Assembly: GCA_016937995.1 (NCBI GenBank)
Contig: JAFGVM010000088.1
Coordinates: 1-46,022, forward strand
DNA from: Candidatus Delongbacteria bacterium
GTDB lineage: Bacteria > UBA4055
Direction: 5' to 3'
Length of the DNA: 46,022 bases
This document shows, in pieces, positions 7,043-22,689 of this stretch; position 1 is the stretch's first letter; every line of letters starts with the position of its first letter. The notes below the pieces were generated by a model. The model saw only the letters and a program-made list of their open reading frames with translations. It did not search any database and was not told where the DNA came from. The translations under genes were made by a program, and so were the position numbers.

Positions 7043-7690
7043 ATGAAGCAGAGTATGATACAAGACCTTATGCATAGTTACAATGAGATCAAAAATGAAA
7101 TTCAAATCCGGATCAAAGAATTTGAGTCAATATTATCCTCATACACCAATGATCAGATCTTTGCAGAACTTTGCTTCTGCCTATTTACACCTCAGTCAAA
7201 AGCCAAATCCTGCTGGAGATCAATTGAAACACTGGTTGAAAAGAATTTGTTGCTCCACGGAAATGCTTCTGAGATCAAAAAGAATATTACCGGAGTTCGT
7301 TTTCACAATAATAAAAGTAGATATCTAATTGAAGTAAGAGATCGATATTTGAACGGTGATTTGAAAGATCTTAAAAACTTTTTATTATCTATTAAACCAT
7401 TTGAACTGCGTGAATGGTTATTCATTAATGTAAAAGGATATGGAATTAAAGAAGCAAGTCATTTTTTGAGAAATATCGGTCTAGGAAAAGATCTTGCAAT
7501 TCTTGACAGACACATTTTAAAAAACTTGGTACTTTTTGGAGTGATCAAAGAAATACCAAAAACTCTGAACAAAAAAGTTTACTATGAAATTGAACATAAG
7601 ATGAAAGTATTTTCAAAAAAAATACAGATCCCTATGGATCATCTTGATATACTTTTCTGGTATAAAGAGGCCGGTGAAATATTTAAATAA
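7043..7690 (+). CDS. ogg: 8-oxoguanine N-glycosylase/DNA lyase (archaeal/Thermotoga type)
   Basis: ELCFCL..RFHNNK; HhH motif GYGIKEASHFLRN; AILDRHIL. Confidence 0.85.
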   Translation: MKQSMIQDLMHSYNEIKNEIQIRIKEFESILSSYTNDQIFAELCFCLFTPQSKAKSCWRSIETLVEKNLLLHGNASEIKKNITGVRFHNNKSRYLIEVRDRYLNGDLKDLKNFLLSIKPFELREWLFINVKGYGIKEASHFLRNIGLGKDLAILDRHILKNLVLFGVIKEIPKTLNKKVYYEIEHKMKVFSKKIQIPMDHLDILFWYKEAGEIFK

Positions 7691-7800
7691 GCAGGAAGTG
7701 CGATCAAACTTACAATCACAACAAATTAACAAACAACTTCATACTTCAAAATCAGCATTTCTGATAAAAATCATATTACATTATTGAAATTATTGTTAGA

Positions 7801-7815
7801 TTGTAACTATTACAT
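7801..7815 (+). promoter_or_regulatory. Candidate Per/Fur-type box
   Basis: TTGTAACTATTACAT (core palindrome TGTAA-CTA-TTACA) just upstream of the perR RBS. Confidence 0.45.
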
Positions 7816-7833
7816 TATAGTTAGGAGACTGAT

Positions 7834-8256
7834 ATGCAAAAATACGTGAAAGAGCTAAAGTATCATAAGCTCAAAATAACTCCTCAGAGACTTGACATAT
7901 TAAAGTTTCTTGATAATAATAGAGTGCATCCAAGTGCTGATGAAATTTATCAGGCAATTAAAATTGATTCTCCTGCACTGTCAAAAACAACAGTTTATAA
8001 CAATATCGATGTGATGGTCAAGAATAATATCATCAAATCATTCAGATTTATGGATTCAAATGAACTTAGATTCGATTATAAGACAACTGAACACTATCAC
8101 TTTATTTGCAGAGAATGTAAGAGTATTTATGATATTGATATTTCTCTTCCATATTTTGAAAAATTTAAAAATTACAAACATAAGGTTGAAGAATTCTATG
8201 GAGATTATAAGGGTGTTTGTGAAAATTGTTTGAAAAATAACTCTAAAAACAAGTAA
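7834..8256 (+). CDS. perR: Fur-family regulator, PerR-like
   Basis: TPQR, HPSADEIY, TVYN, HYHFICREC and CENC; heads an oxidative-stress cluster. Confidence 0.8.
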   Translation: MQKYVKELKYHKLKITPQRLDILKFLDNNRVHPSADEIYQAIKIDSPALSKTTVYNNIDVMVKNNIIKSFRFMDSNELRFDYKTTEHYHFICRECKSIYDIDISLPYFEKFKNYKHKVEEFYGDYKGVCENCLKNNSKNK

Positions 8257-8353
8257 TAATTAATTTTGAACTAGTGACTTTTTAAGATATATTTATGATT
8301 AAAGAAACACAAACACTAAATATTAACACTAAATAGAATAATAGGAGAACAAA

Positions 8354-8512
8354 ATGAAAAAGTATGTATGTACAGTTTGTGGTTATGTTTACGACCCTCA
8401 AGCAGGTGATCCTGACAGTGGGATTGCTCCCGGAACAGCTTTTGAAGATATTCCAGCTGACTGGGTATGTCCTATTTGCGGAGTAGGAAAAGATGATTTT
8501 GAGGAGGCATAG
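8354..8512 (+). CDS. Rubredoxin (52 aa; absent from ORF track)
   Basis: [60 protein letters not shown]. Confidence 0.97.
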
Positions 8513-8517
8513 AAATT

Positions 8518-9702
8518 ATGGCTGTTAGGAAAATAAATTCTGACGTGTTCTATGTGGGTGCAATTGACTGGGATAGAAAGATATTTGATGAATTGATCCC
8601 GTTACCTGATGGTACCTCTTACAATTCTTACATACTTAAAGGTAGCGAGAAAACAGCCTTAATTGATTCTGTAGATCCTGAGAAAGAAATGGAATTACTA
8701 GCAAATCTGCATGAACTCGGAATTGAAAAAATAGATTATATAGTTTCAAATCATGCCGAGCAGGATCATTCTGGTGCTATTCCGCTTATCCTGGAGCATT
8801 TTCCTGAAGCTGTTGTAGTGACCAATCAGAAATGTAAGGCTTTTGAAATAGATCATCTTTACATTCCGGATTCTAAATTCCATGTTATTCATGATGGTGA
8901 CACTTTATCTCTGGGTAATAAAACATTGAAGTTCATAATGACCCCATGGGTTCACTGGCCGGAAACAATGGTCACTTACTTGGAAGAGGATAACATATTG
9001 TTCAGCTGTGATTTTTTTGGTTCTCATTTTGCATCTTCCAAGCTGTTCGCGGAAGAAAACCCAAAAGTCATTGAAGGTGCTAAAAGATATTATGCAGAGA
9101 TAATGATGCCGTTTAGATCAACTATCAGAAAAAATATTGATATCCTTTCAAAGTATGATATAAAAATGATCGCACCCAGTCATGGACCGATCTGGAAATC
9201 TCCGAATACTATAATTGATGCCTATAAGGAATGGATCTCAGAGAAAGTGAAAAATGAAGTAGTGATACCATACGTTTCAATGCACGAAAGCACCAAAATC
9301 ATGGTTGAATACATGATAGATGAACTAATCAAAAAAGATATTATAGTTAAACCATACAATTTAACCAGGACCGATACAGGTGAGCTTGCTATGTCTCTAG
9401 TAGATACCGCAACAGTTATTATAGCAACACCTATGGTACTTGCGGGTGCACATCCCGCTGCTGTGTATGCTACATTTTTAATGAATGCACTCAGACCTAA
9501 AACCAAGTTTGTAGGTATCATTGGATCTTATGGATGGGGTGGCAAAATGGTTGACCAGCTTAAAGGTCTCCTTGCTAATTTAAAAGTGGATTATTTCGAT
9601 CCGGTCTTAGTTAAAGGAAGACCTGTGGAAGATGATTTTAAAGAGTTGGACAAGCTGATCGATCTAATTGTTGAAAAACATAAAACTTTGAATGAGGAAT
9701 AA
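8518..9702 (+). CDS. fprA: Flavodiiron protein (A-type flavoprotein)
   Basis: GTSYNSY, HAEQDH, HWPET, SCDFFG; C-terminal flavodoxin domain (GSYGW). Confidence 0.93.
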   Translation: MAVRKINSDVFYVGAIDWDRKIFDELIPLPDGTSYNSYILKGSEKTALIDSVDPEKEMELLANLHELGIEKIDYIVSNHAEQDHSGAIPLILEHFPEAVVVTNQKCKAFEIDHLYIPDSKFHVIHDGDTLSLGNKTLKFIMTPWVHWPETMVTYLEEDNILFSCDFFGSHFASSKLFAEENPKVIEGAKRYYAEIMMPFRSTIRKNIDILSKYDIKMIAPSHGPIWKSPNTIIDAYKEWISEKVKNEVVIPYVSMHESTKIMVEYMIDELIKKDIIVKPYNLTRTDTGELAMSLVDTATVIIATPMVLAGAHPAAVYATFLMNALRPKTKFVGIIGSYGWGGKMVDQLKGLLANLKVDYFDPVLVKGRPVEDDFKELDKLIDLIVEKHKTLNEE

Positions 9703-9706
9703 AATA

Positions 9707-10219
9707 ATGCTTAAGAAAAATATTGAAAAAATGATAGTGGACCAGGTAAATTTTGAGATTTACTCAGCATATATATATCTTGCTATGGCTGCATATTGTG
9801 ATGATAATGACTATCCCGGTTTCGCAAACTGGTTAAAAATACAATGGGAAGAAGAAATATTTCACGCTATGAAGATGTATAGTTATGTTGTTGAACGTGG
9901 TGGAAAAATAGTTCTTAATAAGATAGATGCTCCTCCTAAATCATGGAAATCATTAATAGCTGTTTTTGAACATGCTCTTGAGCACGAACAGTTAGTTACA
10001 GGCAGAATAAATAAGATCATGACCGCAGCGATAAAAGAAGACGATCATGCTACCCGTTCCTTTTTAAACTGGTTCGTTGATGAACAGGTGGAAGAAGAGG
10101 CAAATGTAGATGGTATAATCAAAAGACTTAAAATGCTTAATGGTTCAGGTCATGGATTGTTCATGTTTGATAAAGAACTTTCTACCAGAACATTTGTACC
10201 TCCGGTAAAGGGTGCTTAA
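9707..10219 (+). CDS. ftn: Non-heme ferritin
   Basis: E.YSAYIY, EE.FHAMK, FLNWFVDEQVEEE; start after GAGGA. Confidence 0.93.
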   Translation: MLKKNIEKMIVDQVNFEIYSAYIYLAMAAYCDDNDYPGFANWLKIQWEEEIFHAMKMYSYVVERGGKIVLNKIDAPPKSWKSLIAVFEHALEHEQLVTGRINKIMTAAIKEDDHATRSFLNWFVDEQVEEEANVDGIIKRLKMLNGSGHGLFMFDKELSTRTFVPPVKGA

Positions 10220-10689
10220 TGGAACTGGTTTATGGAAATAAGGCACCTGAGTTCTCACTTCCTGATAAAGACGGAAATATAGTAGAACTAAAAGAACTGA
10301 AGGGTAAATGGTTGATATTATATTTTTATCCAAAAGATAATACTTCAGGTTGAACAACAGAGGCAGTTGAGTTTTCAACTATGTTAAATAAATTTCATGA
10401 TGAGAATGCTGAAGTGATAGGAATAAGTAAAGATTCACAAAAAAGCCACATGAGTTTTTATGAAAAGCATAATTTAAAGATAATAATCTTAAGTGATCCT
10501 GAAAAAATCATACATAAGTTATATGGTTCTTGGGGACTAAAAAAATTGTACGGAAAGGAGTCAATGGGAACTATTCGTTCCACATTTATGATCGACCCTG
10601 ATGGCAAATTAGTTCATAGCTGGAAGAATGTCCGAATTAAGGGTCATGTTGAAGAAGTATATAAGAAATTGATAGAATTAAAGAAATAA
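10219..10689 (+). CDS. bcp: BCP/PrxQ peroxiredoxin, probable selenoprotein (Sec45)
   Basis: ATG overlaps the ferritin TAA; MELVYGNKAPEFSLPD...YFYPKDNTSG-TGA(10351-10353)-TTEA continues in frame into the 10381 ORF. Confidence 0.88.
10356..10385 (+). promoter_or_regulatory. Candidate bacterial SECIS element
   Basis: Stem AGTTGA (10365-10370), loop GTTT, TCAACT (10375-10380), plus lower AACA/TGTT pairing; loop G follows the UGA after a 17-nt spacer. Confidence 0.7.
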
Positions 10690-10700
10690 AGGAGTGAATC

Positions 10701-11081
10701 ATGGCTGAATTTCAAAAAATTTATAAGTGTGCAATGTGTGGAAATATTGTTGAAGTTGTACACCAGGGAGCTGGAGAGTTAGTGTGCTGCGGTCAACCAA
10801 TGAACAAAATGGAAGCCAATGCAGTTGATGCTGCTAATGAAAAACACGTACCGATAATCGAAAAGACCGAAAACGGGATTCTCGTAAAAGTGGGTGAAGT
10901 TGACCATCCAATGGCAGATGAACATTATATTGAATGGATAGAAGTGATCAATGGTTCGTACTCACAAAAAAAGTTTTTAAAACCAGGAGAAAAACCTCAG
11001 GCTGAATTTTATGTCCCTTTCAATGATAATCTGGTAGCAAGATCGTATTGTAATCTTCATGGATTATGGAAAAGTAAATAG
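10701..11081 (+). CDS. dfx: Desulfoferrodoxin / superoxide reductase
   Basis: CAMCGN..LVCCG, EKHVP, HPM..EHYIEW, YCNLHG. Confidence 0.95.
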   Translation: MAEFQKIYKCAMCGNIVEVVHQGAGELVCCGQPMNKMEANAVDAANEKHVPIIEKTENGILVKVGEVDHPMADEHYIEWIEVINGSYSQKKFLKPGEKPQAEFYVPFNDNLVARSYCNLHGLWKSK

Positions 11082-11092
11082 AGGAGCATAAA

Positions 11093-11266
11093 ATGTCTGC
11101 AAAGAAAGTATTGGAAGCGTTTAAAAATGCAGGAAAACCAATGAAACCCGGCGATATAGCTCAGGTTCTGGGCATGGACAGCAAAGAAGTTTCTAAGTAT
11201 ATAAAAGAGTTAAAAGAAAATGGTGAGTTAATATCTCCTAAGAGATGCTTTTACTCTCCAAAGTAA
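11093..11266 (+). CDS. Small winged-HTH protein (57 aa; absent from ORF track)
   Basis: MSAKKVLEAFKNAGKPMKPGDIAQVLGMDSKEVSKYIKELKENGELISPKRCFYSPK; GAGGAG RBS; fills the operon gap. Confidence 0.85.
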   Translation: MSAKKVLEAFKNAGKPMKPGDIAQVLGMDSKEVSKYIKELKENGELISPKRCFYSPK

Positions 11267-11284
11267 AAAAAAGGAGTTTTAATT

Positions 11285-11857
11285 ATGAGTATCAAAGGTA
11301 CTGAGACTGAAAAAAATTTATTGAAGGCATTTGCCGGTGAATCACAAGCCAGAATGAGATATGACTATTTCGCTAAACAGGCAAAGAAAGAAGGTCTTGA
11401 ACAAATTTCAGCTATATTTGCTGAAACATCATTGAATGAAAAAGAACACGCAAAAAGATTTTTTAAATTTCTTGAAGGTGGCGGAGTTGAGATCACTGCA
11501 ATGTATCCTGCAGGAAAGATCGGTACAACTTTGGAAAACCTTAAAGCATCTGCTGATGGTGAGAATGAAGAATGGACTGAGCTATATCCTGAATTTGCAA
11601 AAGTAGCTGAAGCAGAAGGGTTTAAAGATGTTGCTGTATGCTTTAGAAAAATTGCTGAAGTCGAAAAAGCTCACGAGAACAGATACAGAAAACTTTACAA
11701 GAACATAGAAGATGGCAAAGTTTTTGAAAAAGATGGAACTTGTACATGGAAATGTTTAAATTGCGGTTATCTTCATGAAGGTAAAAAAGCTCCTGAATTG
11801 TGTCCGGCATGTTTACATCCTCAAGCTTACTTTGAACTAAAAGACAATAATTACTAA
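11285..11857 (+). CDS. rbr: Rubrerythrin
   Basis: [19 protein letters not shown]-terminal CLNCG..CPAC. Confidence 0.95.
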
Positions 11858-11884
11858 TAAATTTTTAAATGATCAGAGGACAAA

Positions 11885-12337
11885 ATGAAAAAAGAAAAAT
11901 TCAATGAAATTATTGATTTCGCTGTTGATGCAGAAAAAGAAGCTGTAGCTTTTTACAGCGATCTTCAAACCAGAACAAAATTCAGTGCTATCAAAGAAAT
12001 GCTAAAAGAATTCGAGAATTTTGAGAGAGGACATATAGTTCAACTTGAAAATATCAGGAAAGAAGGCTTGGATAATCTTGTTGAAAAAGAAATTCATGAC
12101 CTTAATTTAAGCGATTACCTGGTCGAAGGAGAACCTTCAGATGATATGGACTTTGAAGACATCATTCTAATAGCCATGAAGAGAGAGGAAGCTGCAAAAA
12201 ATCTTTATCAGTCTTTCGCTGCTAAAATGGCAGGAACGGAAATTGAAAAACTTCTTTTGAGGCTTGCTGCAGACGAATCAGAACATAAGCTTAAGTTCGA
12301 AAAAATATACGATGATAAAGTTCTCAGAGATAACTAA
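11885..12337 (+). CDS. Ferritin-like/rubrerythrin-family protein without rubredoxin domain
   Basis: Duplicated A..E..A..Y...ExxH motifs. Confidence 0.8.
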   Translation: MKKEKFNEIIDFAVDAEKEAVAFYSDLQTRTKFSAIKEMLKEFENFERGHIVQLENIRKEGLDNLVEKEIHDLNLSDYLVEGEPSDDMDFEDIILIAMKREEAAKNLYQSFAAKMAGTEIEKLLLRLAADESEHKLKFEKIYDDKVLRDN

Positions 12338-12360
12338 ATATTTGATTTATGGAGTGATGT

Positions 12361-13335
12361 ATGGCAGATTTATCTTTAGAAGTGATGGGATTAAAACTTA
12401 AAAATCCTATTATAGTTGGATCCAGCAGCTTAACCAGTACTGTTGAGAGTATAAAAAAATTAGAGATGTCCGGTGCAGGCGCGGTAGTATTAAAATCTCT
12501 TTTCGAAGAACAGATCATGAATCAGGTATATGCTGATACTGTAAATTACACACATGCTGAAACTCTTGACTATGTTAAATATTTCGAAGAGAAGCACATT
12601 GTTGAGAAATATTTAAAGTTAATAAAAGACTCTAAAAATGAGATCGGGATACCGATAATAGCTAGTATTAACTGCAACAGTCACGGTAAATGGGTTGAGT
12701 TCGCTGAAGAAATACAGAATTCAGGAGCTGATGCTATAGAACTGAATTTATATAATCTTCCATCGGATCCAAAAATAAATCAACATAATTACATGGAAAC
12801 AGCTTCAAAGATCATCAATGATATCACAAAGCATATAAGTATACCATTTTCAATGAAGTTAAGCCCATATTCTGACAATTTGGCTTATGACCTTTTAAGA
12901 ATTTCACGAACTAAGATCTCAGGACTAGTACTTTTTAACAGATCCTTGAATCCGGATATTGATATTAAATCGGAATCTCTTATAAACGGACATCCATATT
13001 CTTCTCCGGGAGAGATCGTAAATACACTTAGATGGACAGCAATTTGTTCAGATTTTCTTGAAACTGATCTTATCGCAGCAACTGGTATTCATGACGGTGA
13101 AGGTATAATAAAACAAATCCTTGCCGGAGCTAAAGCAGTGCAGATGGTATCTTCATTGTACATTAATTCTCTATCCGCAATAAAAGAATCTTTGACAAAT
13201 CTGGAAAACTGGATGAATGAACACAAATATAATAAATTGTCAGATTTTAGAGGAAAATTAAAGAGATCAAATGTAAAAGATCCAAAATTCTATGATCGTG
13301 TTCAATTTATTCAAAGCATTCAAAATAATAAATAG
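12361..13335 (+). CDS. Dihydroorotate dehydrogenase-like FMN protein
   Basis: LKNPII, GAGAVVLKSLFEEQI, MKLSPY, LFNR, TGIHDG..AGA.AVQ. Confidence 0.85.
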   Translation: MADLSLEVMGLKLKNPIIVGSSSLTSTVESIKKLEMSGAGAVVLKSLFEEQIMNQVYADTVNYTHAETLDYVKYFEEKHIVEKYLKLIKDSKNEIGIPIIASINCNSHGKWVEFAEEIQNSGADAIELNLYNLPSDPKINQHNYMETASKIINDITKHISIPFSMKLSPYSDNLAYDLLRISRTKISGLVLFNRSLNPDIDIKSESLINGHPYSSPGEIVNTLRWTAICSDFLETDLIAATGIHDGEGIIKQILAGAKAVQMVSSLYINSLSAIKESLTNLENWMNEHKYNKLSDFRGKLKRSNVKDPKFYDRVQFIQSIQNNK

Positions 13336-13343
13336 AGGATTCT

Positions 13344-13856
13344 ATGGACCTTACAACTTTATTCAAAGTTACATATGGAATGTATATCGTAAGTTCAAAA
13401 AAAGGTGAAAAGATCAATGCTCAACTGTCTAACACGGTTGTACAGATATCACCGGATCCTGCTACAATGCTTATAAGTGTATCCAAAAATAATTTAACAC
13501 ATGAGTTTATAGAGGAAAGCGGTATCTTTACGATTTCTATAGTATCTAACAAATGTGAAATGAAGGATATTGGACACTTTGGATTCAGAACAGGAAGAGA
13601 CTTTGATAAATTCAAAAATAGTGAATATGTTCTTGGTAAGAACGGTGCTCCTTATATTAGAGAGAAGATGATCGGTTATGTTGAATGTGAGGTAATAAGA
13701 ACTATTGACAGTGATTCTCATACTATTTTTATCGGAATTGTTACCGATGCAGCAACACTCAATACTGATCTTGAACCCATGACATACGATTTCTATCGTA
13801 AAGAACTCCATGGCAAGTTATCGAAGAATGCGACGCATTATCAGGAAGAAAAATAA
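13344..13856 (+). CDS. Flavin reductase-like protein
   Basis: TYGMYIV, FGFRTGR..DKF, HTIFIG, PMTY. Confidence 0.85.
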   Translation: MDLTTLFKVTYGMYIVSSKKGEKINAQLSNTVVQISPDPATMLISVSKNNLTHEFIEESGIFTISIVSNKCEMKDIGHFGFRTGRDFDKFKNSEYVLGKNGAPYIREKMIGYVECEVIRTIDSDSHTIFIGIVTDAATLNTDLEPMTYDFYRKELHGKLSKNATHYQEEK

Positions 13857-13858
13857 GC

Positions 13859-13886
13859 AAAAAGGCGGTCATTTGACCGCCTTTTT
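13859..13886. terminator. Bidirectional intrinsic terminator
   Basis: AAAAAGGCGGTCA-TT-TGACCGCCTTTTT between convergent operons. Confidence 0.9.
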
Positions 13887-13905
13887 ACTATAGCTTATAT
13901 TTAAT

Positions 13906-14373
13906 TTATTCATTTGGTTCGATCTCTAATATCTCGATCAGTTCTTTAGGAGAGATCCTGTACGGAGATCCTTTTCCCTGGTAAAAACCGTGTTCTTCGA
14001 TCATATGTATATGAAAATCTGTGAAGTGAATTTCTTGCTTGATCTTTGTATTAATAACTCCAATATTGTTTTTTGAGATCAAACCTGGTTCACCAAAGGG
14101 ACAGGCAAGTTTTCCTCTAACACTCTCAACAATAACCTCAAAGTTATCACCAACACATACAGGTAAGCCCTCACCCTTTATACCTTCTTCTTTAAAGAAT
14201 TTCATTTTCTCTGCAATGATATCATGTGACAGACCTGATCTGCTAACTTCAGCATCATCCTCTATCAAAATGTCTATTAAATGTCTTTTGTCTTTACCTA
14301 GAAATCCCTCACCCGTAATAACTCCGGGCTTCATAGCTTCTTCTGCTTTTTTAAGTTGTGGTGACTGTTTCAT
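13906..14373 (-). CDS. Hypothetical protein at the end of the nqr-like operon
   Basis: GGAGG RBS, 8 nt after the nqrF stop; ACPF and H..IEEHGFYQG motifs. Confidence 0.8.
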   Translation of the reverse strand: MKQSPQLKKAEEAMKPGVITGEGFLGKDKRHLIDILIEDDAEVSRSGLSHDIIAEKMKFFKEEGIKGEGLPVCVGDNFEVIVESVRGKLACPFGEPGLISKNNIGVINTKIKQEIHFTDFHIHMIEEHGFYQGKGSPYRISPKELIEILEIEPNE

Positions 14374-14381
14374 AAAACCTC

Positions 14382-15494
14382 CTATCCAAAGCTATCATAA
14401 AATATTTTATTTTCCGGAATACCTAATTCCATCAATTTTTGCTTATACGAAATTATTACTCGTTCGCCTGCACAAAGATATGCTTCAGTATTCTCAGGTT
14501 TTTTTAAATATTTGGGTAATATTTCTGAAAGTCTACCGGTTTCTCCATTCCAATCTTTACTTTCTTCCGGTCTTGATATAATTGGAACGAACTTAAAGTC
14601 AGGTAATTTCTTCTCAAGTGATTTTAGTTCATCGACCAGGAAAAGATCATCCGTATTTTTAGCCCCAAAAAGGAAGGTTGCCTTCCTGTTTATTCCCCTT
14701 TCAAGCATATCCATCAAAATAGATTTTATAGGAGCCATACCTGATCCTACTGCCATGAATATCAGTTCAGAATCAGTATCAGTCAGATAAAAGTCTCCAT
14801 AAGGGCCATTCATTTTAATTATTTCTCCTTCCTGCATATGCTTGTGTACATAGGTTGTACATATTCCGTTCGAAACATACTTTATCTGGAGCTGGAATCT
14901 TTTATTTTCACTTGGAACAGATGAAATTGAATAGGCACGATAAACTGTTTCCTCACAGAGTTCGTATTCAGGTACTTCAAGCTGAACGAACTGACCTGCT
15001 TTAAATTCCATCTTGTCGTCACCCTGAAAAACAAATGTAATACATTTAATATCATGTGTCAGATCAACTATTTTATCAACTTTTACCTCATATTCTTTTA
15101 TTTCTAAAAGTTCATCCGGGACAGTTACTTTAAGATCATTTTTCATTTTCAACTGACAACATAGACGGATATTATCTTTCTGCTCTTCTTTTGTTATCCA
15201 GGAAAGCTCTGTGGGAAGATAATCTCCACCGCCTTCATCGATTTTCAGCTTACATAAACCGCATGACCCTCTTCCTCCACAGGCTGAAGGTATAAAGATC
15301 CCCTGCTCTTTCAAGGTGGTTAATACTGTATTTCCACCTTCAACTTCAAACTCTTTATCATTATTTACAATCAGTTTTTTTTTACCGTAATTTCCAATTG
15401 TTGCATCGGCGATCACCATCAGAATGGCGAGAACAGTGGAAATTCCGCAAACTACCAGAACACTATAAACAAGCTCTATCCATTGAAGATACAT
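14382..15494 (-). CDS. nqrF: NqrF-like subunit (TM anchor, 2Fe-2S, FAD/NAD domains)
   Basis: CGGRGSCGLC...C, RAYS, GPYG, GSGMAP. Confidence 0.85.
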   Translation of the reverse strand: MYLQWIELVYSVLVVCGISTVLAILMVIADATIGNYGKKKLIVNNDKEFEVEGGNTVLTTLKEQGIFIPSACGGRGSCGLCKLKIDEGGGDYLPTELSWITKEEQKDNIRLCCQLKMKNDLKVTVPDELLEIKEYEVKVDKIVDLTHDIKCITFVFQGDDKMEFKAGQFVQLEVPEYELCEETVYRAYSISSVPSENKRFQLQIKYVSNGICTTYVHKHMQEGEIIKMNGPYGDFYLTDTDSELIFMAVGSGMAPIKSILMDMLERGINRKATFLFGAKNTDDLFLVDELKSLEKKLPDFKFVPIISRPEESKDWNGETGRLSEILPKYLKKPENTEAYLCAGERVIISYKQKLMELGIPENKIFYDSFG

Positions 15495-15507
15495 TAAATA
15501 CTCCTAC

Positions 15508-15542
15508 CCACTTACCACTTTAAACTTATCACTTACCACTAA
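15508..15542. repeat. Degenerate heptamer tandem repeat (CACTTAY family)
   Basis: ccactta ccacttt aaactta tcactta ccactaa between nqrE and nqrF. Confidence 0.6.
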
Positions 15543-16132
15543 CTAAGTCCCATCATCCCAGTGAAACCCATAAATGCCATAGCCATAATACCAGCAATGA
15601 TCAAAGTTATACCCGCCCCTTCTAGACCTTTGGGTATCCTTGCATTCGCAAGTTTTTCTCTTATTCCTGCCATCGCAATAATTGCTATCATCCATCCTAC
15701 ACCGGAACCAAGGCCGAATGAAACTGATTGAGAAAAAGTATAATTTCTGATTATCATAAAAAGACTCACACCAAGTATAGCACAATTCACAGTTATCAGA
15801 GGAAGAAATATTCCTAAAGCTGTATAAAGGGTTTCGCTTACTCTTTCTATAACCATTTCAACAATCTGTACAAAGGCGGCAATTACAATGATAAAAACTA
15901 TGTACTTGAGATAATCCAGATCAAAAGGCTTGAGTAAAAAATTGTAGATCAGCCAGTTTAAAGCACTTGTGGCCGTCATAACAAAGATCACCGCAAAACC
16001 CAGACCGACCGCAGTTTTGACCTGCCTTGAAACCGCAAGAAATGAGCAGGTTCCAAGATACAGTGTGAGAAGTATATTGCTGGTAAAAATAGCGGCAAAA
16101 AATATCCCGAAAACACCTATTCCTTCACTCAT
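15539..16132 (-). CDS. nqrE: NqrE/RnfA-family subunit
   Basis: LGTCSFLAVS, IFLPLITVNCAILG. Confidence 0.88.
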   Translation of the reverse strand: MSEGIGVFGIFFAAIFTSNILLTLYLGTCSFLAVSRQVKTAVGLGFAVIFVMTATSALNWLIYNFLLKPFDLDYLKYIVFIIVIAAFVQIVEMVIERVSETLYTALGIFLPLITVNCAILGVSLFMIIRNYTFSQSVSFGLGSGVGWMIAIIAMAGIREKLANARIPKGLEGAGITLIIAGIMAMAFMGFTGMMGLS

Positions 16133-16740
16133 TTTACCTCCTCAGGATCTTTGATAATCACACCTTTCACTATCCAGATAAAGACAGCAAGCATAAAGAA
16201 AGCACCCGGAGCCATAACCATGATAGACCATTTAACCCACCAGGAACCTAAAACAGTAAATCCCCAAACCGTACCGGAACCCATCAGCTCTCTAAAGAAA
16301 GCTATAATGAGGAGTACATATGTATATCCTATTCCGGAACTCATTCCATCCACAAATGAAATGAACGGTTTGTTGTTTAAAGCAAACGCTTCTGCTCTGC
16401 CCATTATAATACAATTAGTTATGATCAGCCCGACATATGGACCAAGTTGTCTTGATACATCCGGAAGATAGGCTTTTAAAACAATGTCAACAAGAATAAC
16501 ATATGAAGCTATTATCATTGTTGTTACCATCATTCTGATCCTTGTAGGGATCTGTTTTCTTAAAATAGAAACTGTCACATTTGAAAGAGCAGTAACAAAA
16601 ACAAGCCCGATGCTCATCACCACTGTATTTTTTAAAACATTTGTAACAGCAAGTGTAGAACAAATGCCCAGGATCTGAACAAATACAGGATTATCTCTCC
16701 CCAGATTTGCTAATGTGATCTTATTTATTTTATTATTCAT
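16129..16740 (-). CDS. nqrD: NqrD/RnfE-family subunit
   Basis: LGICSTLAVT, LIITNCIIMGRAEAF. Confidence 0.88.
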   Translation of the reverse strand: MNNKINKITLANLGRDNPVFVQILGICSTLAVTNVLKNTVVMSIGLVFVTALSNVTVSILRKQIPTRIRMMVTTMIIASYVILVDIVLKAYLPDVSRQLGPYVGLIITNCIIMGRAEAFALNNKPFISFVDGMSSGIGYTYVLLIIAFFRELMGSGTVWGFTVLGSWWVKWSIMVMAPGAFFMLAVFIWIVKGVIIKDPEEVK

Positions 16741-17341
16741 TATTCACTCTCTTCCATTCTGCATTGTTAATTGCTGTAACTTTATTAACTATATCTTTTA
16801 TTGCTTTTGTGGTCACAGTAGCACCGGTAATAGCATCGAACTGACTCTCAGTATCGTTCTCACCTTCAGGTACATATGTAAACGGACCTTTTTTTCCCCT
16901 GAACTGTTCCCTGAACCAGTCTTCAGCAATTCTTGCTCCCAGACCCGGTGTTTCACTCTGTTTTATGAAATCAATGCCTGTCATTTTACCGGTTTTAGAA
17001 TCAAAACCGACATGAGCTCTGATGACTCCCCACAGACCTGCTCCGTCAATCGTGTATATAACAATTGAACTGTTTTTAAATCTGTATTCAGGAATTGAAT
17101 TTATTCCCGCAGTTTCAGTAACATTTTCACTGAAAAATATATCAAGATCTTCATCACTATTTGGAATTTGCATATCAGCAGTGTATAAGACGGATCTTTT
17201 CAGAAACAGTTTCTCATTTCTTGTAACTCTGGATTTTGTATACAAATGAACAAATGAAAGCAAAACTACAAAAACAAAGGTGATCGAGAACATGAAAACA
17301 ACCATTTTGATCCTTGCAGCTGTTTTATTTTTCTTTGCCAT
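16733..17341 (-). CDS. nqrC: NqrC/RnfG-family FMN-binding subunit
   Basis: GAGLWG, ETPGLG, DAITGAT flavinylation motif. Confidence 0.85.
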   Translation of the reverse strand: MAKKNKTAARIKMVVFMFSITFVFVVLLSFVHLYTKSRVTRNEKLFLKRSVLYTADMQIPNSDEDLDIFFSENVTETAGINSIPEYRFKNSSIVIYTIDGAGLWGVIRAHVGFDSKTGKMTGIDFIKQSETPGLGARIAEDWFREQFRGKKGPFTYVPEGENDTESQFDAITGATVTTKAIKDIVNKVTAINNAEWKRVNNE

Positions 17342-17349
17342 AAAATCTC

Positions 17350-18309
17350 CTATGTGGCCTTCATTTGTTTAGCTTTCTTTCTTTGTTTCCACTCTTTTAC
17401 CCCCGTATCCATAAGTGGTGCGAACATGTTTGCCAGCAGGATCGCAAACATCATACCTTCCGGCCAGACAGAAAATGTTCTTATAACCGAGGTCATGACG
17501 CCAATAAATATACCGTATATCATTTTTGCAGTTTCTTCTTTTGGTGCTGAAACAGGATCAGTAGCCATAAAAAAGAGTCCTAAAATAAATCCGCCCGAAA
17601 GAATAGAGGTCAAAAGATCAATATTACCAGTTATTCCAAAGCTCCCGAGAATACCCTGAATTACCAGCATTCCGATCAGTGTCCAGATGACTATAGTTTT
17701 ACTCGCGATCTTTTGTTTCAATAGATAAAGTCCGCCGACAGCAAGTAAAATTGCTGAGGTCTCTCCGATGGAACCGGGAATATTTCCCAAAAAAGCGTTT
17801 AAGTAAAAAACCTTGTCAATATTCTCCCCTGTTGAAAGAACAGTAGCAGAAGTAATGGCATCGGGAGTGTATTTTACAAGTCCTCCCAACCAACCTATTG
17901 CAGGTTTTGCCCAGTTACCTGTCATATAAGAAGCAAATGTAACATATATGAAAGCTCTTCCCACCAGTGCGGGATTAAATATATTTTTTCCAAAACCGCC
18001 AAAGACCATTTTTCCGAAAATAACAGAAAAAACGATCCCGACCACAGCCATCCAGTATGGAAGAGTTGGCGGAATTATCATGACAAACAGAAAGTTTGTA
18101 ACAAATACAGAAGAGGATACAGGTTCGCTATAGTGTCTGGCAAAAAAATACTCCGCTAAAAAACCAAAAATGTTAACTACAATAAACATTATAAAAGCTC
18201 TCCAGCCGAAAAAATAAACAGACGCAATTAAAGCCGGAGTTAATGCCCACATTACTTTTTTCATTGGAAGTAGCCATCTTACAACTGGATTTTTCTTTTT
18301 ATCAGTCAT
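17350..18309 (-). CDS. nqrB: NqrB/RnfD-family subunit
   Basis: FGGFGKNIFNPAL, DAITSAT, GSIGETS, FMATDPVSAP; start 18309 or 18318. Confidence 0.85.
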   Translation of the reverse strand: MTDKKKNPVVRWLLPMKKVMWALTPALIASVYFFGWRAFIMFIVVNIFGFLAEYFFARHYSEPVSSSVFVTNFLFVMIIPPTLPYWMAVVGIVFSVIFGKMVFGGFGKNIFNPALVGRAFIYVTFASYMTGNWAKPAIGWLGGLVKYTPDAITSATVLSTGENIDKVFYLNAFLGNIPGSIGETSAILLAVGGLYLLKQKIASKTIVIWTLIGMLVIQGILGSFGITGNIDLLTSILSGGFILGLFFMATDPVSAPKEETAKMIYGIFIGVMTSVIRTFSVWPEGMMFAILLANMFAPLMDTGVKEWKQRKKAKQMKAT

Positions 18310-18321
18310 TTTTCTCACTCA

Positions 18322-18561
18322 TTAAGTAGTTTCAATAACATTTTGATCTATCAGGCAGGCTTCATGTCCAAGTTTATCAACCATTTTGATTATTTCATTT
18401 AAAATTTTTCCGTCTCCTTCATATTGAACAGTGATCTCTTTTTTTGCAATGTCAACAAAAACATCAGAAACACCGGGCAATTTCCTTCCCGCGTGCTCAA
18501 TTGCATAGGTACAGGCACCGCAATATGAACCTTTAATAGATAGTCTCGCTTTTTTTTTCAT
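18322..18561 (-). CDS. Heavy-metal-associated (HMA/CopZ-like) domain protein
   Basis: IKGSYCGAC...LPGV..V.V....I.V.Y...LGH. Confidence 0.8.
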   Translation of the reverse strand: MKKKARLSIKGSYCGACTYAIEHAGRKLPGVSDVFVDIAKKEITVQYEGDGKILNEIIKMVDKLGHEACLIDQNVIETT

Positions 18562-18756: not shown

Positions 18757-19365
18757 ATGAGAAACTATAAGAAAGATGAAAATAAATTCTGTCCGTTATG
18801 CAGATTGTATAAAGACATTTGTATCTGCTCAGAAATTAAAAAATTCAACCTTGATACAAGAATTTCCATATTAATGCATAACAAAGAAAAGAGAAAAGTC
18901 TCAAACACTGCAAAAATAGCTTATTTAACACTTAACAACTGCAATTTGGTAACCAAAGGCGAGAAAGATGTCAATACTGATATAAACAGCATTATATCCT
19001 CACAACACATAAATATTGTACTGTATCCCGATGCTTCAAAAGAGTTGAACAGAGAACTTCTGCAGAATTTTGATAAACCTGTTAATCTGATAGTGCTGGA
19101 TGGAAATTATAACCAGGCGGGAAAGATGTTCCGTTCAGATATTGCTTTGCAAAAAGCAATTAAAGTCAGACTTCCATTAGGGCAGATCAGAAAAGATCAA
19201 CTCCGGTCACCCGTTCATCCTGAACAGGTATCAACAATAGAAGCTGTCATTAATGCTTTAGAGATAATTGGAGATACTGAAGCAAATGAACATATGGAAT
19301 ATTTATTCGGTGAACTGACATTACGTCTTAAAAAAAGGGTCAATAGTAATTTAAAATTTACTTAG
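18757..19365 (+). CDS. DTW-domain protein (tRNA acp3U transferase family)
   Basis: CxxC..CxC, H.KE....NTA, LYP, LIVLDG, LR...STIEA. Confidence 0.8.
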   Translation: MRNYKKDENKFCPLCRLYKDICICSEIKKFNLDTRISILMHNKEKRKVSNTAKIAYLTLNNCNLVTKGEKDVNTDINSIISSQHINIVLYPDASKELNRELLQNFDKPVNLIVLDGNYNQAGKMFRSDIALQKAIKVRLPLGQIRKDQLRSPVHPEQVSTIEAVINALEIIGDTEANEHMEYLFGELTLRLKKRVNSNLKFT

Positions 19366-21916
19366 CTACTAATGTTCCTAGCTTACAATATCCTTCCTCA
19401 GTGTTTCTTGCGATCCTGATTATTATAGGTTCATATTTTTCAGATTCAAGGAACAGTCTGTAACTACCCGGTTTTAGTCCATATGCATAAAAATATCCTG
19501 CTTTGTTAGTAAAGATAGTTGTATAATCCTCATCATATTTTCCATACGGTACCAATTCAGCCACAGCATTAGCTATTGGTCTATTTTCCTGATCCACTAA
19601 TTGACCTTTGGCAAAAATATATGCCTTACCTTCAATATCTATTAAAAATCCACTTTTGTAAGTAGGTAATAGTATGTGTCCGTCCGAATTAACTTCATAT
19701 CCCATTGGAAGGTCTGGAAGTTCAACATTAAATTCCTGGACCCTGTACGGAAGTAAGTTAGTAAAAATAGCTGGACCAAAACGATCGGATGAGTATTGGT
19801 AATTACCATCACGGGTTCTATTGATCCCTACCTTATAATCTTTGATCACTTTGTTCGGTTTTATTAATGCAAAGCTATTATTAACAAGTTTTCCCCAGCC
19901 GAAATGGCCTCCTACGAAAACTATACCTGTTCCACCTCTCAGATTTACTGTATTATTCCTAATTCCATCATCGGATTCATTGAAATCATAATTGAGAGAT
20001 AAATTTCCACGGTTACCGGAATATGAGGTTGTGTTTGAAACTGATACAGGAGAATACTCAGATCTATTAGTAGAAAGACTGTTCATCAAGCTACCATCAG
20101 GTGCCTGATAATCCCAATTAACTCTTCCAGAATTATATTTACTGTCATATACCGTATTGAATACATGGTTAATAGGTGGATTATAGGTCAGGTTAAGGCT
20201 TGCTCTCCATGGATCAAGTGATGAATTACCGTCTCTGTTTGTTATCGTACAGGATACCCTCATGCTTGATGACATTCTCTTAGCTATTGAAAATGAATAC
20301 GTATAGGTATCCGGCTGGGTCTCTCTTCCAATTCCGTATGAAGCACTTAGAGAAGTATTTATTGTCTCAGTAATATTCTGCGATACCGACCCTGAGATGA
20401 TATATGAGACTAGGTTTCGAGGTGTAAGTTCATTCAGATTTGCATAGTTTTCACCTAAAAACTCTATCGTACCTCTCCATTGTCTGTGAAACGGATTTTG
20501 ATGATAATTGTTATTGAAATAATTATAAGACAGTCTTGTAGCAACACCGGTTGAAATTGAATCAGTACCGCTTAATGCCAGATCAACATCAAAATTCCCG
20601 AACACTGTACCAAAATTACTGCCTAAACCGAACATGTACTGATCCATCTTTGCTTGTGAATATGCTGAAAGTGTAATATTATTTGTTAAACCTCTACGAT
20701 AGAACATAGATACTATCGGTTCGTCACTGTAATTTATCTTACCGTCATATACTTGGCTCGTAACTCCCACATTAAACGAATACTGATCAAGATCTTTCTT
20801 CAATTGAAGATTGTTAAAATATGAATTTAGGTCGATCACTTCTTCATCACCGATATCGTTCCTGATAATAACCTTGATATTGGTCACACCGTGATTAAAT
20901 GCCGCCTGCTTTAAATTAAAAGGACCGGGATTAACGTTCATCTTCTCCATTAACACATCGTTGGCATATATTTCAATTGTAGAAGGTCTTAGGATCACAA
21001 CCCCGTTCATTGTTTCAGGCTGAGTAGTCTTATAGGGTTGTAAATTAAAATCTTTTGTAAAGGCTACTCCAGCCATTGAAGGAGAAGTTTGATACCCAAT
21101 TATCGGAATGTTAAGATCACCTAAATAATATCTGAACATATACTCAGGTTGATCATATACCAATCTTGTCATTCTTCTCTGAATGTCACCGTTATCTGAA
21201 TACTCACCCAAACCTTCCAGAACCACTTTGTAGATATTTATCGCACCATCAAAATTCAATGAGAACGGATTGCTGCTGAAGTCATTTTCCTCATAAGAAG
21301 TGAATTTTAATAACTGTGATGCCCTGAGATTTAAAAATCCGCTATAATTACTCGGTGATAAGGCAAAGTCAATACTGCTTGGTGCATTGTTATAACCTAA
21401 TTCTGAAGTGTTGGGTTTGATATATTCTGGAGGTACACTGATCTCAAATCGCAACATCTGTTCATCATAATCAGTATAGATATTATTCTCCTCTAAAAAA
21501 GCAAGATTTATGGTACTTAAATTCAAAGTAGCACCGACAAGCCATTCCATTAAGGGTTTATTTATAACTTTTGCAAGATGTTTGTACAATGTAGTTTTTC
21601 TTACGTGTATCTGATCAGCACCTTTCTTCAGGAATACTTCTATCTTACCTACTCTTTTACCGTTTATTATGTATGGTACAAGCAACTTGTAAGGTTTAAC
21701 CTGTTTATAACCGAACACCTCGTAAAAAAGATCATCGTAATTAGTATTATTAATATCTGGTTCATCCAGTGCAATCGGTTCCTGTGAAGCTAAAAGCTCA
21801 TAATCTGAATCTATATCAGCCATTGCTAAAAGATCGAACTCCTTCTGAAGATCAGAATATAACATCCCGGTCAATAACAATACAAGTATGATCAATATTT
21901 CACTTTTAAATTTCAA
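19358..21916 (-). CDS. Fimbrial outer-membrane usher
   Basis: TTG start; YYLGD, PSTIEIYAN..PGPFNL, YRRGLTNNITL, C-terminal FTNKAG; follows the chaperone gene. Confidence 0.85.
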   Translation of the reverse strand: MKFKSEILIILVLLLTGMLYSDLQKEFDLLAMADIDSDYELLASQEPIALDEPDINNTNYDDLFYEVFGYKQVKPYKLLVPYIINGKRVGKIEVFLKKGADQIHVRKTTLYKHLAKVINKPLMEWLVGATLNLSTINLAFLEENNIYTDYDEQMLRFEISVPPEYIKPNTSELGYNNAPSSIDFALSPSNYSGFLNLRASQLLKFTSYEENDFSSNPFSLNFDGAINIYKVVLEGLGEYSDNGDIQRRMTRLVYDQPEYMFRYYLGDLNIPIIGYQTSPSMAGVAFTKDFNLQPYKTTQPETMNGVVILRPSTIEIYANDVLMEKMNVNPGPFNLKQAAFNHGVTNIKVIIRNDIGDEEVIDLNSYFNNLQLKKDLDQYSFNVGVTSQVYDGKINYSDEPIVSMFYRRGLTNNITLSAYSQAKMDQYMFGLGSNFGTVFGNFDVDLALSGTDSISTGVATRLSYNYFNNNYHQNPFHRQWRGTIEFLGENYANLNELTPRNLVSYIISGSVSQNITETINTSLSASYGIGRETQPDTYTYSFSIAKRMSSSMRVSCTITNRDGNSSLDPWRASLNLTYNPPINHVFNTVYDSKYNSGRVNWDYQAPDGSLMNSLSTNRSEYSPVSVSNTTSYSGNRGNLSLNYDFNESDDGIRNNTVNLRGGTGIVFVGGHFGWGKLVNNSFALIKPNKVIKDYKVGINRTRDGNYQYSSDRFGPAIFTNLLPYRVQEFNVELPDLPMGYEVNSDGHILLPTYKSGFLIDIEGKAYIFAKGQLVDQENRPIANAVAELVPYGKYDEDYTTIFTNKAGYFYAYGLKPGSYRLFLESEKYEPIIIRIARNTEEGYCKLGTLVAK

Positions 21917-21918
21917 GG

Positions 21919-22671
21919 TTACTCTTTAATTAGTTCAACATTTATCTGACCCAATGGTATCTGTTCAGGCCATAGGATTCTGAATCTTCTTTTACTTTTT
22001 GCTAATATAGATGAAGCCATAGCAGGAACTTCATTCATGGTCAAAATCAACGGCTTAAGATTACCACTATCTTCCTTTCTTGCACCCTGTCTAATCAGGA
22101 ATGAAGCACTTGTCAATTTCCCGTGAAGATTGCCATTGTTTATACAAACTATTTCCAGTTCCTGTTCTCCTTTATCGCTTAAAGGAGCACCTATTGACTC
22201 AATTACAATATCTGGACTGGCATTAATAGGTTTTACATATAATCTTCCTGCATAATTCATAAGAACATTTATGCTTGCAGAAAAACTGACGTCATTATTT
22301 TTCTTCTTTGGAAGTTCGATCTCTTTACAAAAGATTGTGTAACTCAGCTCATTTTCAATATCCTGTTTACCAACATAACGGACCTGTATCGATCTTTCCT
22401 CATTCTTTTTTAATATGAACTGAGCAGGATAGATCACGAAATCGTCATGCACTTCCTCGCCCTGAACAGGATTTCCATCAATATCCTTTGTCAACTTTAA
22501 TATGCTTATATCAATAGGGATCGGTCTGTCCTCCTGATTGGATATAGTATATAAGTAACTCGATGAATTTCCATTTGTAGTTAAAGTAACTACAGAAGGG
22601 CCAAAAGTATATGCGTTCAATATCAAGGTGAGTAGAGTTATATATAAAATCGTAATTTTCTTATTAATCAT
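21919..22671 (-). CDS. Fimbrial periplasmic chaperone (PapD/CsuC-like)
   Basis: Signal peptide; YPAQFIL..ERSIQVRY, ELSY..E, N.GN.H. Confidence 0.85.
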   Translation of the reverse strand: MINKKITILYITLLTLILNAYTFGPSVVTLTTNGNSSSYLYTISNQEDRPIPIDISILKLTKDIDGNPVQGEEVHDDFVIYPAQFILKKNEERSIQVRYVGKQDIENELSYTIFCKEIELPKKKNNDVSFSASINVLMNYAGRLYVKPINASPDIVIESIGAPLSDKGEQELEIVCINNGNLHGKLTSASFLIRQGARKEDSGNLKPLILTMNEVPAMASSILAKSKRRFRILWPEQIPLGQINVELIKE

Positions 22672-22689
22672 TTTCAAATCCTGAAAGTT

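Follow-up and report, generated by a model that had tools for sequence, protein, structure and literature searches.

An NqrA-less operon of the Nqr family with a conserved sixth gene and a recurrent genomic link to rubredoxin

Contig JAFGVM010000088.1 of Candidatus Delongbacteria bacterium (assembly GCA_016937995.1), whose full 46,022 nucleotides form the window analysed here, carries on its minus strand, from position 18561 to 13906, a compact operon for five subunits of the Nqr/Rnf family, NqrB to NqrF, with no gene for NqrA or RnfC and with a last gene for a 155-residue protein that we call X155. From gene context, profile scores and phylogeny we conclude with high confidence that the operon encodes a distinct, NqrA-less complex of the Nqr family in which X155 is the conserved sixth gene. 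As to function, the genes incline us, by a small margin, towards an ion-pumping membrane NADH:rubredoxin oxidoreductase, formed by NqrBCDEF together with X155 as a branch of its own within the Nqr/Rnf family; the translocated ion would probably be Na+ or H+.

Seven open reading frames (ORFs), all on the minus strand and closely packed, make up the operon in the order HMA-nqrB-C-D-E-F-X155. The first gene codes for a CopZ-like HMA protein of 79 residues with a CxxC motif (18322..18561; PF00403, E 4.6e-10), whose matches to CopZ/MerP-type NCBIfam models all lie under the respective cut-offs. After a gap of 3 nucleotides comes the NqrB-like subunit (17350..18318, 322 residues; PF03116, E 5.5e-87), and after a further gap of 8 the NqrC/RnfG-like FMN-binding subunit (16733..17341, 202 residues; FMN_bind PF04205, E 4.3e-18). 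The genes for NqrD (16129..16740, 203 residues) and NqrE (15539..16132, 197 residues) overlap their predecessors by 8 and 4 nucleotides, respectively, while the NqrF-like NADH-oxidising subunit (14382..15494, 370 residues) follows a gap of 44 nucleotides and the X155 gene (13906..14373) one of 8. A terminator-like hairpin of 15 pairs followed by a T-run (13889..13856) separates the operon from a convergent oxidative-stress operon, and on the other side a DTW-domain gene (18757..19365, plus strand) is transcribed divergently. The gene map and the hairpin agree with the initial annotation, made from the window's letters alone, which had described a compact hma-nqrB-C-D-E-F-hypothetical operon bounded by a divergent gene and a terminator.

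The profile scores place the D, E and F subunits on the Nqr side of the family. The D subunit reaches 240.1 bits with the NqrD model NF006777, above its cut-off of 235, versus 175 bits with the rnfE model, and the E subunit scores 241.9 bits with nqrE (TIGR01940), just below the cut-off of 247.55, versus 224.5 bits with rnfA. The F subunit consists of an N-terminal helix, a [2Fe-2S] ferredoxin domain, an FAD domain and an NAD domain (Fer2, FAD_binding_6 and NAD_binding_1), which is the domain set of the NqrF of the sodium pump Na+-NQR (an NADH:quinone oxidoreductase), though its score with nqrF TIGR01941 (256.4 bits) lies below the equivalog cut-off of 295. The C subunit, with the flavinylation motif TGAT at Thr175, gives 75.8 bits with rnfG and 74.4 bits with nqrC, each under its cut-off.

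The B subunit had been described in the initial annotation as RnfD-sized, and its 322 residues do match the NqrB of Vibrio cholerae from residue 125 on only. It exceeds the subfamily cut-off of rnfD (TIGR01946, 235.6 bits) and scores 218-242 bits with the NqrB models, under their cut-offs and with alignments that start near model position 108. When compared with solved chains, the nearest is V. cholerae NqrB (178 bits, query residues 32-312 on chain residues 125-405), with the RnfD chains further away (131-139 bits); we therefore read B as an NqrB that lacks approximately the first 90 residues. Full-length NqrB of about 400 residues, including the N-terminal stretch, is a feature of Na+-NQR that is missing here: the six canonical NqrB proteins that we retrieved have 397-404 residues where they are called cleanly.

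To place the two accessory genes, relatives of X155 were collected and their surroundings read. A list of 100 relatives with 37-82% identity came from Delongbacteria, Spirochaetes, Lentisphaerae and metagenomes, and a profile search returned 1919 representatives at E<=1e-3, 979 of them at <=1e-10. Gene context was then taken from 80 loci, the best of at least 548 relatives, with one genome scanned per species; most are from Spirochaetota, with single loci from Delongbacteria, Sumerlaeota, Victivallales, 'Bacillota' and Mcinerneyibacterium. The gene immediately upstream of X155, on the same strand, is an nqrF homologue at all 80 loci. The whole order B-C-D-E-F-X155 is found at 69 of them, the remaining 11 being cut by a contig end. 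The module has X155 as its conserved sixth gene, and the candidacy of X155 as a partner of the complex, raised in the initial annotation for both accessory proteins, is well founded. The HMA protein fared differently: its gene adjoins nqrB at only two loci (L014 and L027), and at a third (L037) it stands some 3 kb upstream, which rules it out as a general partner and, judging by these loci, makes it a lineage-specific addition outside the conserved module.

The same linkage is seen when whole genomes are counted. Of 301 Spirochaetota genomes sampled, 42 have X155 and 44 have a window-like NqrF (E<=1e-59), and 41 of the 42 X155 carriers have both. By coordinates, the two genes are adjacent in 36 carriers and split by contig ends in five, and in one (G302) X155 stands beside nqrF fragments. 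Three genomes have a window-like NqrF without X155: G094, where a contig end truncates the gene; G139, with a second type of operon described below; and G164, with nqrBCDEF alone and a B subunit of 444 residues. Beyond Spirochaetota, X155 is patchy in the window's own small phylum (4 of 16 genomes) and single-copy in the window's genome. The genome of L082, used to sample Bacillota, belongs to a GTDB phylum with 10 genomes only, nine of them with a window-like NqrF, and Clostridia and Thermotogae lie outside this sample. The operon of G302 (L101:7505-12025) is of the X155 type, with B, E and F present as several separate tblastn pieces and a diverged X155 (27% identity); this copy may be in decay.

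Judged by alignment, the core cofactor set is intact across the related loci. The predicted FMN-carrying residue of B, Thr159 in the motif DAITSAT, is threonine in 65 loci, serine in two and uncovered in two, while that of C, Thr175, is threonine in 60 and serine in 12 of the loci that cover it. The cysteines for the intramembrane [2Fe-2S] cluster are retained at every covered locus, both in D (Cys27 in 73/73, Cys110 in 74/74) and in E (Cys29 and Cys117, each in 76/76), and Cys72, Cys78, Cys81 and Cys113 of F are likewise invariant. The complex thus has the four-cysteine NqrD/NqrE pair and the covalent-FMN threonines in B and C that characterise Na+-NQR. In addition, the B positions aligned with Asp346 and Asp397 of V. 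cholerae NqrB, which we take to have a role in Na+ uptake, are mostly retained.

The search for NqrA and RnfC was extended to the whole assembly of the window (2.75 Mb, 99 contigs, 96.95% complete). Exactly two loci contain a pair of Rnf-Nqr membrane genes: the window operon and a complete rnfCDGEAB operon on another contig (C9), with RnfC at 536.7 bits, RnfD at 341.7 bits, RnfB above its cut-off and homologues of G, E and A between them. RnfC and RnfB, absent from the window operon, occur in this genome only there. No gene in the assembly passes the cut-off for nqrA; the best TIGR01936 match (24.7 bits against a cut-off of 321) is the rnfC gene itself, which already belongs to the C9 operon, so that the Nqr-like operon is left without an NqrA or RnfC of its own. 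Five further X155 genomes from other lineages likewise gave no NqrA above cut-off. These searches agree with the initial annotation of an Nqr-type complex that has the NADH module NqrF and lacks NqrA and RnfC, and they favour its suggestion that electrons would leave by a non-canonical exit. It had also named the outcome that would speak against it, namely nqrA or rnfC encoded elsewhere together with non-conserved accessory genes: an rnfC is indeed encoded elsewhere, but inside its own operon, and one of the two accessories, X155, is strictly conserved. As for maturation, the genome has one ApbE flavin transferase; NqrM (PF04400) gave zero matches, but the control also matched in no genome, so that this result is uninformative.

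The relationship to Rnf and to canonical NQR was addressed with a tree of B, D and E (714 columns, 31 operons, quick IQ-TREE run, SH-aLRT support only, rooted on Rnf). It includes the window and 15 other operons of the X155 type, four of the second type from Spirochaetota, the G164 operon (L097), six canonical nqrABCDEF operons and four Rnf operons; the canonical rows come from one phylum only, that of the Victivallales genome, and L097 is a long branch. The four Rnf operons form the outgroup clade and all NqrF-bearing operons form one clade (support 100 each); within the latter, canonical NQR groups with the second type (95), and the 16 rows of the X155 type group with L097 (98). The X155 type does not fall inside the canonical clade. 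With the root on Rnf, its sister group is canonical NQR together with the NqrA-like forms, so that it is, by this tree, a sister branch of NQR and does not lie between Rnf and Nqr. The earlier description of the complex as an Rnf/Nqr intermediate was thus too loose, given also that D, E and F score as Nqr and that B is nearer to NqrB than to RnfD.

The second type of operon is found in four Spirochaetota (L098:2885-8474 in G065, L100:2449-7958 in G132, L102:1216-6727 in G125 and L099:1569-6929 in G167). Its first gene, of 465-504 residues (cut by the contig end in L099), matches the whole NqrA model NF003761 at 170-202 bits, under the cut-off, while its product retains the RnfC-type C-terminal domain with two [4Fe-4S] clusters; B (362 residues), C, D, E and F follow. 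This type may represent an extant stage intermediate between RnfC and NqrA. Downstream, L098 and L100 have an unrelated gene of 151 residues and a histidine kinase, with a response regulator in L098 as well, and L102 has ORFs of 123, 471 and 130 residues, of which the 123-residue one was scanned and gave no match. The 151-residue gene after nqrF was considered as a distant X155 and rejected (hhalign probability 0.12). The G164 operon (L097:7484-11839) has nqrBCDEF with neither NqrA nor X155, the long B of 444 residues mentioned above, and unrelated genes on the opposite strand in its flanks.

If neither NqrA nor RnfC is available, the question is where the electrons go, and here the neighbourhood of X155 offers a candidate. 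A rubredoxin gene lies downstream of X155 at 26 of the 80 loci and in the upstream flank at none (507 kb versus 232 kb of flank, respectively). At 10 loci it stands within 1 kb and on the same strand, with at least 1 kb of downstream flank available at 70. The other recurrent neighbours are rubrerythrin (21/80), ferritin (15/80), Fur/PerR-family regulators (15/80), desulfoferrodoxin, a superoxide reductase (SOR; 13/80), and flavodiiron protein (11/80); other flanking families each appear at no more than 12 loci, and at least one gene of the rubredoxin system is present in the flank at 35. Of the 42 X155 carriers among the sampled Spirochaetota, 15 have a single rubredoxin match in their genome that stands on the same strand as X155 and no more than 1 kb downstream of it; this count overlaps that of the 80 loci, several genomes being common to both. 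Rubredoxin is present in 42/42 genomes with X155 versus 161/259 without it (Fisher one-sided p 1.4e-8, uncorrected for kinship).

In the window itself, the nqr operon converges, over the shared terminator, on a plus-strand oxidative-stress island that holds the only rubredoxin of the genome (8354..8512, plus strand, 52 residues; PF00301, E 1e-25, the single match to that family). By Pfam assignment the island (7043-13856; from Fur/PerR onward 7834..13856) comprises 8-oxoguanine glycosylase (Ogg), a Fur/PerR-family regulator, rubredoxin, a flavodiiron-like protein, ferritin, PrxQ, desulfoferrodoxin, a small HTH protein, rubrerythrin, a rubrerythrin-like protein, a DHOD-like flavoprotein and a flavin reductase.

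Gene fusions of the two proteins also exist. Among the 150 best representatives of the X155 family, X155::rubredoxin fusions occur in two lineages, one a cluster of three members, each on its own contig (P0151), and the other P0156. A metagenome scan with P0151 recovered four loci; three of them include the X155 part, each time right behind nqrF, and the fourth (L119) matches the rubredoxin part only. At L117, the order is flavodiiron protein-B-C-(nucleotidyltransferase + 134-residue insert)-D-E-F-X155::rubredoxin, and the fusion is one ORF of 210 residues with both CxxC pairs of rubredoxin. The insert between nqrC and nqrD at this locus (L117:4561-5609), an NTP_transf_2 gene and the 134-residue ORF, has a small mobile or toxin-antitoxin-like look.

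X155 is also fused to rubrerythrin (P0122), a nitroreductase (P0163), AhpC/TSA (P0171) and a fragment of an aldo-keto reductase domain (P0216). Together with the recurrence of rubrerythrin, SOR, flavodiiron protein and ferritin in the flanks, these fusions could point to a general NADH-driven reductase hub, in which X155 docks several redox proteins, or a partner other than rubredoxin, and in which ion pumping may be absent. We consider either reading unlikely, since each of the non-rubredoxin fusions is a single-member cluster, and the rubredoxin fusion alone recurs in a second lineage and has its operon context confirmed. Rubredoxin is moreover the most frequent neighbour, the one placed directly after X155 on the same strand at the 10 loci noted above, and rubrerythrin, SOR and flavodiiron proteins are themselves clients of rubredoxin.

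What X155 would contribute is less apparent from its sequence. The window protein has all the features of the family: about 150 residues, Arg30, His123 and His128 (invariant at 80/80 loci), a conserved HGF(Y/F)xGxG motif and a place right after nqrF. The protein is predicted to be soluble and has zero matches in Pfam or NCBIfam, and 22 members of the family gave only scattered, chance-level Pfam matches at E<=1. A distant member scores 23.6 bits with PF25535 (DUF7919), below the cut-off of 27, and that family appears in 13% of the members of a look-alike Atlas cluster; we regard the X155 family as undescribed, with a weak relation at most to DUF7919. Its AlphaFold2 model, from a 22-row alignment, is confident (pLDDT 93.3, pTM 0.87) and found no match in the PDB (Foldseek best E 0.25; VIA-align against 48,161 chains best Z 2.8), which does not by itself prove a new fold. 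The only frequent cysteine, Cys91, is serine at 30 of the 80 loci, so an Fe-S or cysteine-ligated metal site is unlikely; the initial annotation had pointed to a Cys/His-bearing protein, of which the histidines hold and the cysteine does not. An origin of X155 as a remnant of NqrA was also tried and rejected as undetectable (hhalign against the NqrA / NqrA-like alignment, probability 0.12).

X155-like domains occur as well in long proteins, with three stretches each in P0101 (885 residues) and P0134 (2506 residues), four in P0223 (945 residues), two in P0240 (468 residues) and one at the C-terminus of P0245 (416 residues). None of the five has a Pfam domain, and the start of P0240 is hydrophobic and signal-like. 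Use of the X155 fold thus extends beyond the Nqr context.

A protein without a conserved cysteine or cofactor motif, for which structure searches give no functional clue, might also act as a maturation, assembly or regulatory factor, in a role like that of NqrM or ApbE, with the acceptor located elsewhere, for example outside the cytoplasm and reached through the FMN of NqrC. Outward one-way electron flow of this kind has been proposed for partial NQR/RNF-like systems, according to the accessible text of PMC8238504. Yet a fusion to rubredoxin, or the only rubredoxin gene of the genome as the next gene in 15 genomes, is not expected of an assembly factor. The flanks of the 80 loci contain no conserved gene for an extracytoplasmic partner, and B is complete in this respect, its FMN threonine retained, which argues for a return of the electrons to the cytoplasm. 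On balance, we see a role restricted to assembly or regulation as rather improbable.

A third possibility is that the complex still reduces quinone, in particular menaquinone, with X155 as a structural cap in place of NqrA and the quinone reduced in NqrB. The scores of D, E and F as Nqr, and V. cholerae NqrB as the closest relative of B, speak for it. So does the cofactor-free nature of NqrA, with electrons going straight from the riboflavin of NqrB to quinone, as described in the accessible part of a review (PMC12174285), since the loss of NqrA need not then abolish quinone reduction. The genome, on the other hand, does not look equipped for it. Its sole UbiA-family gene is best matched by GGGP-type prenyltransferases, with MenA at merely E 0.005, and no cytochrome bd was found; both the MenA-type and the cytochrome bd negatives are results from a 97%-complete assembly and not proof of absence. 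Taken with the missing N-terminal stretch of about 90 residues in B, these results make quinone unlikely as the acceptor in this genome. Quinone reduction would also leave the adjacency and the fusions of X155 and rubredoxin unexplained, and of the alternatives weighed here we find it the most doubtful.

Mechanistically, an NADH:rubredoxin oxidoreductase of this type would work as follows. NADH would give a hydride to the FAD of NqrF, from which single electrons would pass through the [2Fe-2S] cluster of NqrF to the intramembrane [2Fe-2S] cluster of NqrD/E and on to the covalent FMN of NqrC. They would then reach the covalent FMN, presumably together with riboflavin, of the short NqrB. X155, which we infer to be a bound subunit on the cytoplasmic face in the place of NqrA or RnfC, would form or shape the exit site, or the dock for rubredoxin, and rubredoxin, a one-electron carrier, would be reduced there. 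Reduced rubredoxin would in turn feed enzymes of the neighbouring island: superoxide reductase, rubrerythrin and the flavodiiron protein. NADH has a potential of about -320 mV and rubredoxins of about -60 to +40 mV, a span that resembles the one between NADH and menaquinone, so ion pumping by this reaction would be feasible. A structure prediction of B, F and X155 together (46-row alignment each) returned a score of 0.00; its controls were not run, and it speaks neither for nor against binding.

Several points weigh against rubredoxin reduction as the function. Because no cofactor motif can be recognised in X155 and Cys91 is so often serine, the exit of electrons from B is left unexplained. 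At 54 of the 80 loci there is no rubredoxin in the flank, although 10 of the 80 have less than 1 kb of downstream flank, and the rubredoxin of the window belongs to a different, convergent operon at a distance of 5.4 kb. The co-occurrence at genome level is weak, since rubredoxin is common in anaerobes (203 of the 301 Spirochaetota genomes) and related genomes are not independent. Most of the other fusion partners are singletons and possibly gene-calling errors; if real, the nitroreductase, aldo-keto reductase and AhpC fusions hint at a broader range of partners or a non-specific neighbourhood. The context count itself comes from the best-scoring loci, mostly of Spirochaetota, with more distant X155 relatives outside it, and the published NqrA-less operons of Thermotogae and Clostridia are outside the X155 comparison.

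Compared with known systems, the complex shares with canonical Na+-NQR an NqrF with NADH, FAD and [2Fe-2S] sites, the four-cysteine NqrD/E, flavinylated threonines in NqrC and NqrB, the gene order B-C-D-E-F and dependence on ApbE. It differs in the lack of NqrA, in the short B of 322 residues, in a putative sixth subunit of unrelated and unmatched fold, in its position as sister to NQR and the NqrA-like forms rather than nested among them, and in an acceptor that is likely rubredoxin instead of quinone. With Rnf (RnfCDGEAB), of which a true operon exists in the same genome, it has a homologous membrane core and a B of RnfD length in common; unlike Rnf, it has neither RnfB nor RnfC, and its input module is NqrF.

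The proposed reaction is that of soluble NADH:rubredoxin oxidoreductase (NROR), an FAD-dependent pyridine nucleotide-disulfide oxidoreductase that works as a single soluble flavoprotein and conserves no energy. Both would carry electrons from NADH to rubredoxin and feed SOR, rubrerythrin and flavodiiron proteins, but the sequences and architectures are unrelated, the window complex being a putative six-subunit membrane assembly from a family of ion pumps.

Partial derivatives of Nqr/Rnf with NAD(P)H input and a flavinylated subunit are also known as two-subunit NQR/RNF-like systems, which, in the accessible text of Meheust et al. 2021 (PMC8238504), join an NqrB/RnfD domain and an NAD-binding domain in one protein and pair it with an FMN-binding protein. 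They have no NqrD/E or separate NqrF, and their B-like domain has no flavinylation threonine, as far as the available text of PMC11334425 describes them. Here, by contrast, D, E, F and the threonine of B are present, and B and F are separate genes.

The closest precedents are operons with nqrBCDEF and no nqrA, found beside a separate Rnf and with an unknown acceptor, in genome papers of which partial texts were available (PMC4148951, PMC5924567 and PMC6256511). As far as those texts go, the NqrA-less NqrBCDEF of Pseudothermotoga thermarum, P. lettingae, Clostridium ultunense, Alkaliphilus metalliredigens and Ca. Izimaplasma share this gene set with the window operon; that of Ca. Izimaplasma is given in PMC6256511, while PMC5924567 states for C. 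ultunense, P. lettingae and A. metalliredigens that the acceptors 'still need to be uncovered'. A sixth gene or a link to rubredoxin is not mentioned in the accessible portions of the three papers, nor is the NqrA-less form in those of a 2025 review of RNF and NQR (PMC12174285) and a 2014 paper on their evolution (PMC4014512). A literature search over open-access papers and bioRxiv, in their main texts, gave nothing relevant on an Nqr-type complex with rubredoxin or on the sixth gene. Within these sources, NqrA-less nqrBCDEF with an unknown acceptor was already known from the genome papers of 2014 and 2018, and neither X155 nor its rubredoxin link is described.

Three further observations concern the surroundings of these genes. 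In the oxidative-stress island, the PrxQ/BCP-type gene (10219-10689, plus strand) has an in-frame TGA (10351-10353) at the position of the peroxidatic cysteine (FYPKDNTSG-TGA-TTE). Read with TGA as U it gives a full PrxQ of 156 residues (153.9 bits), compared with the fragment of 102 residues in the ORF lists, and SelB is found in the genome above cut-off (334 bits); the product is likely a selenocysteine peroxiredoxin. On the other side of the operon, a PapD_N chaperone-like gene adjoins one for a protein of 852 residues with a CarboxypepD_reg-like C-terminal domain (window 19358-22677, minus strand), a chaperone-usher-like pilus cluster that is unusual in such an organism. Elsewhere in the genome, the next gene upstream of the GGGP-type UbiA-family gene is RseC-like (weak match; SoxR-reducing system) (contig C56:122952-124215; L095:1026-2289).

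Taken globally, these results supply the published question of the acceptor with a concrete candidate answer in rubredoxin, and the module with a new conserved gene whose fold and function are undescribed. They also extend the account of NQR's origin from RNF by a sister branch. Should the complex pump ions, the detoxification of O2 and reactive oxygen species would be coupled to energy conservation in fermenters (Spirochaetota, Delongbacteria, Mcinerneyibacteriota and the relatives in Sumerlaeota and Victivallales), and the soluble NADH:rubredoxin oxidoreductase would gain a membrane-bound, energy-conserving counterpart. In its widest form, which we put forward tentatively and at somewhat less than even chances, strict anaerobes of several phyla would own a third branch of the Rnf/Nqr family, a Na+- or H+-pumping NADH:rubredoxin oxidoreductase with X155 as an exit subunit of unsolved fold, that turns the reduction of O2, superoxide and peroxide by rubredoxin-dependent enzymes from a mere expense into a respiration-like way of conserving energy. 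Were this true, the NqrA-like subunit of the second operon type, with its RnfC-type [4Fe-4S] domain, would mark the transition from RnfC to NqrA on the sister branch.

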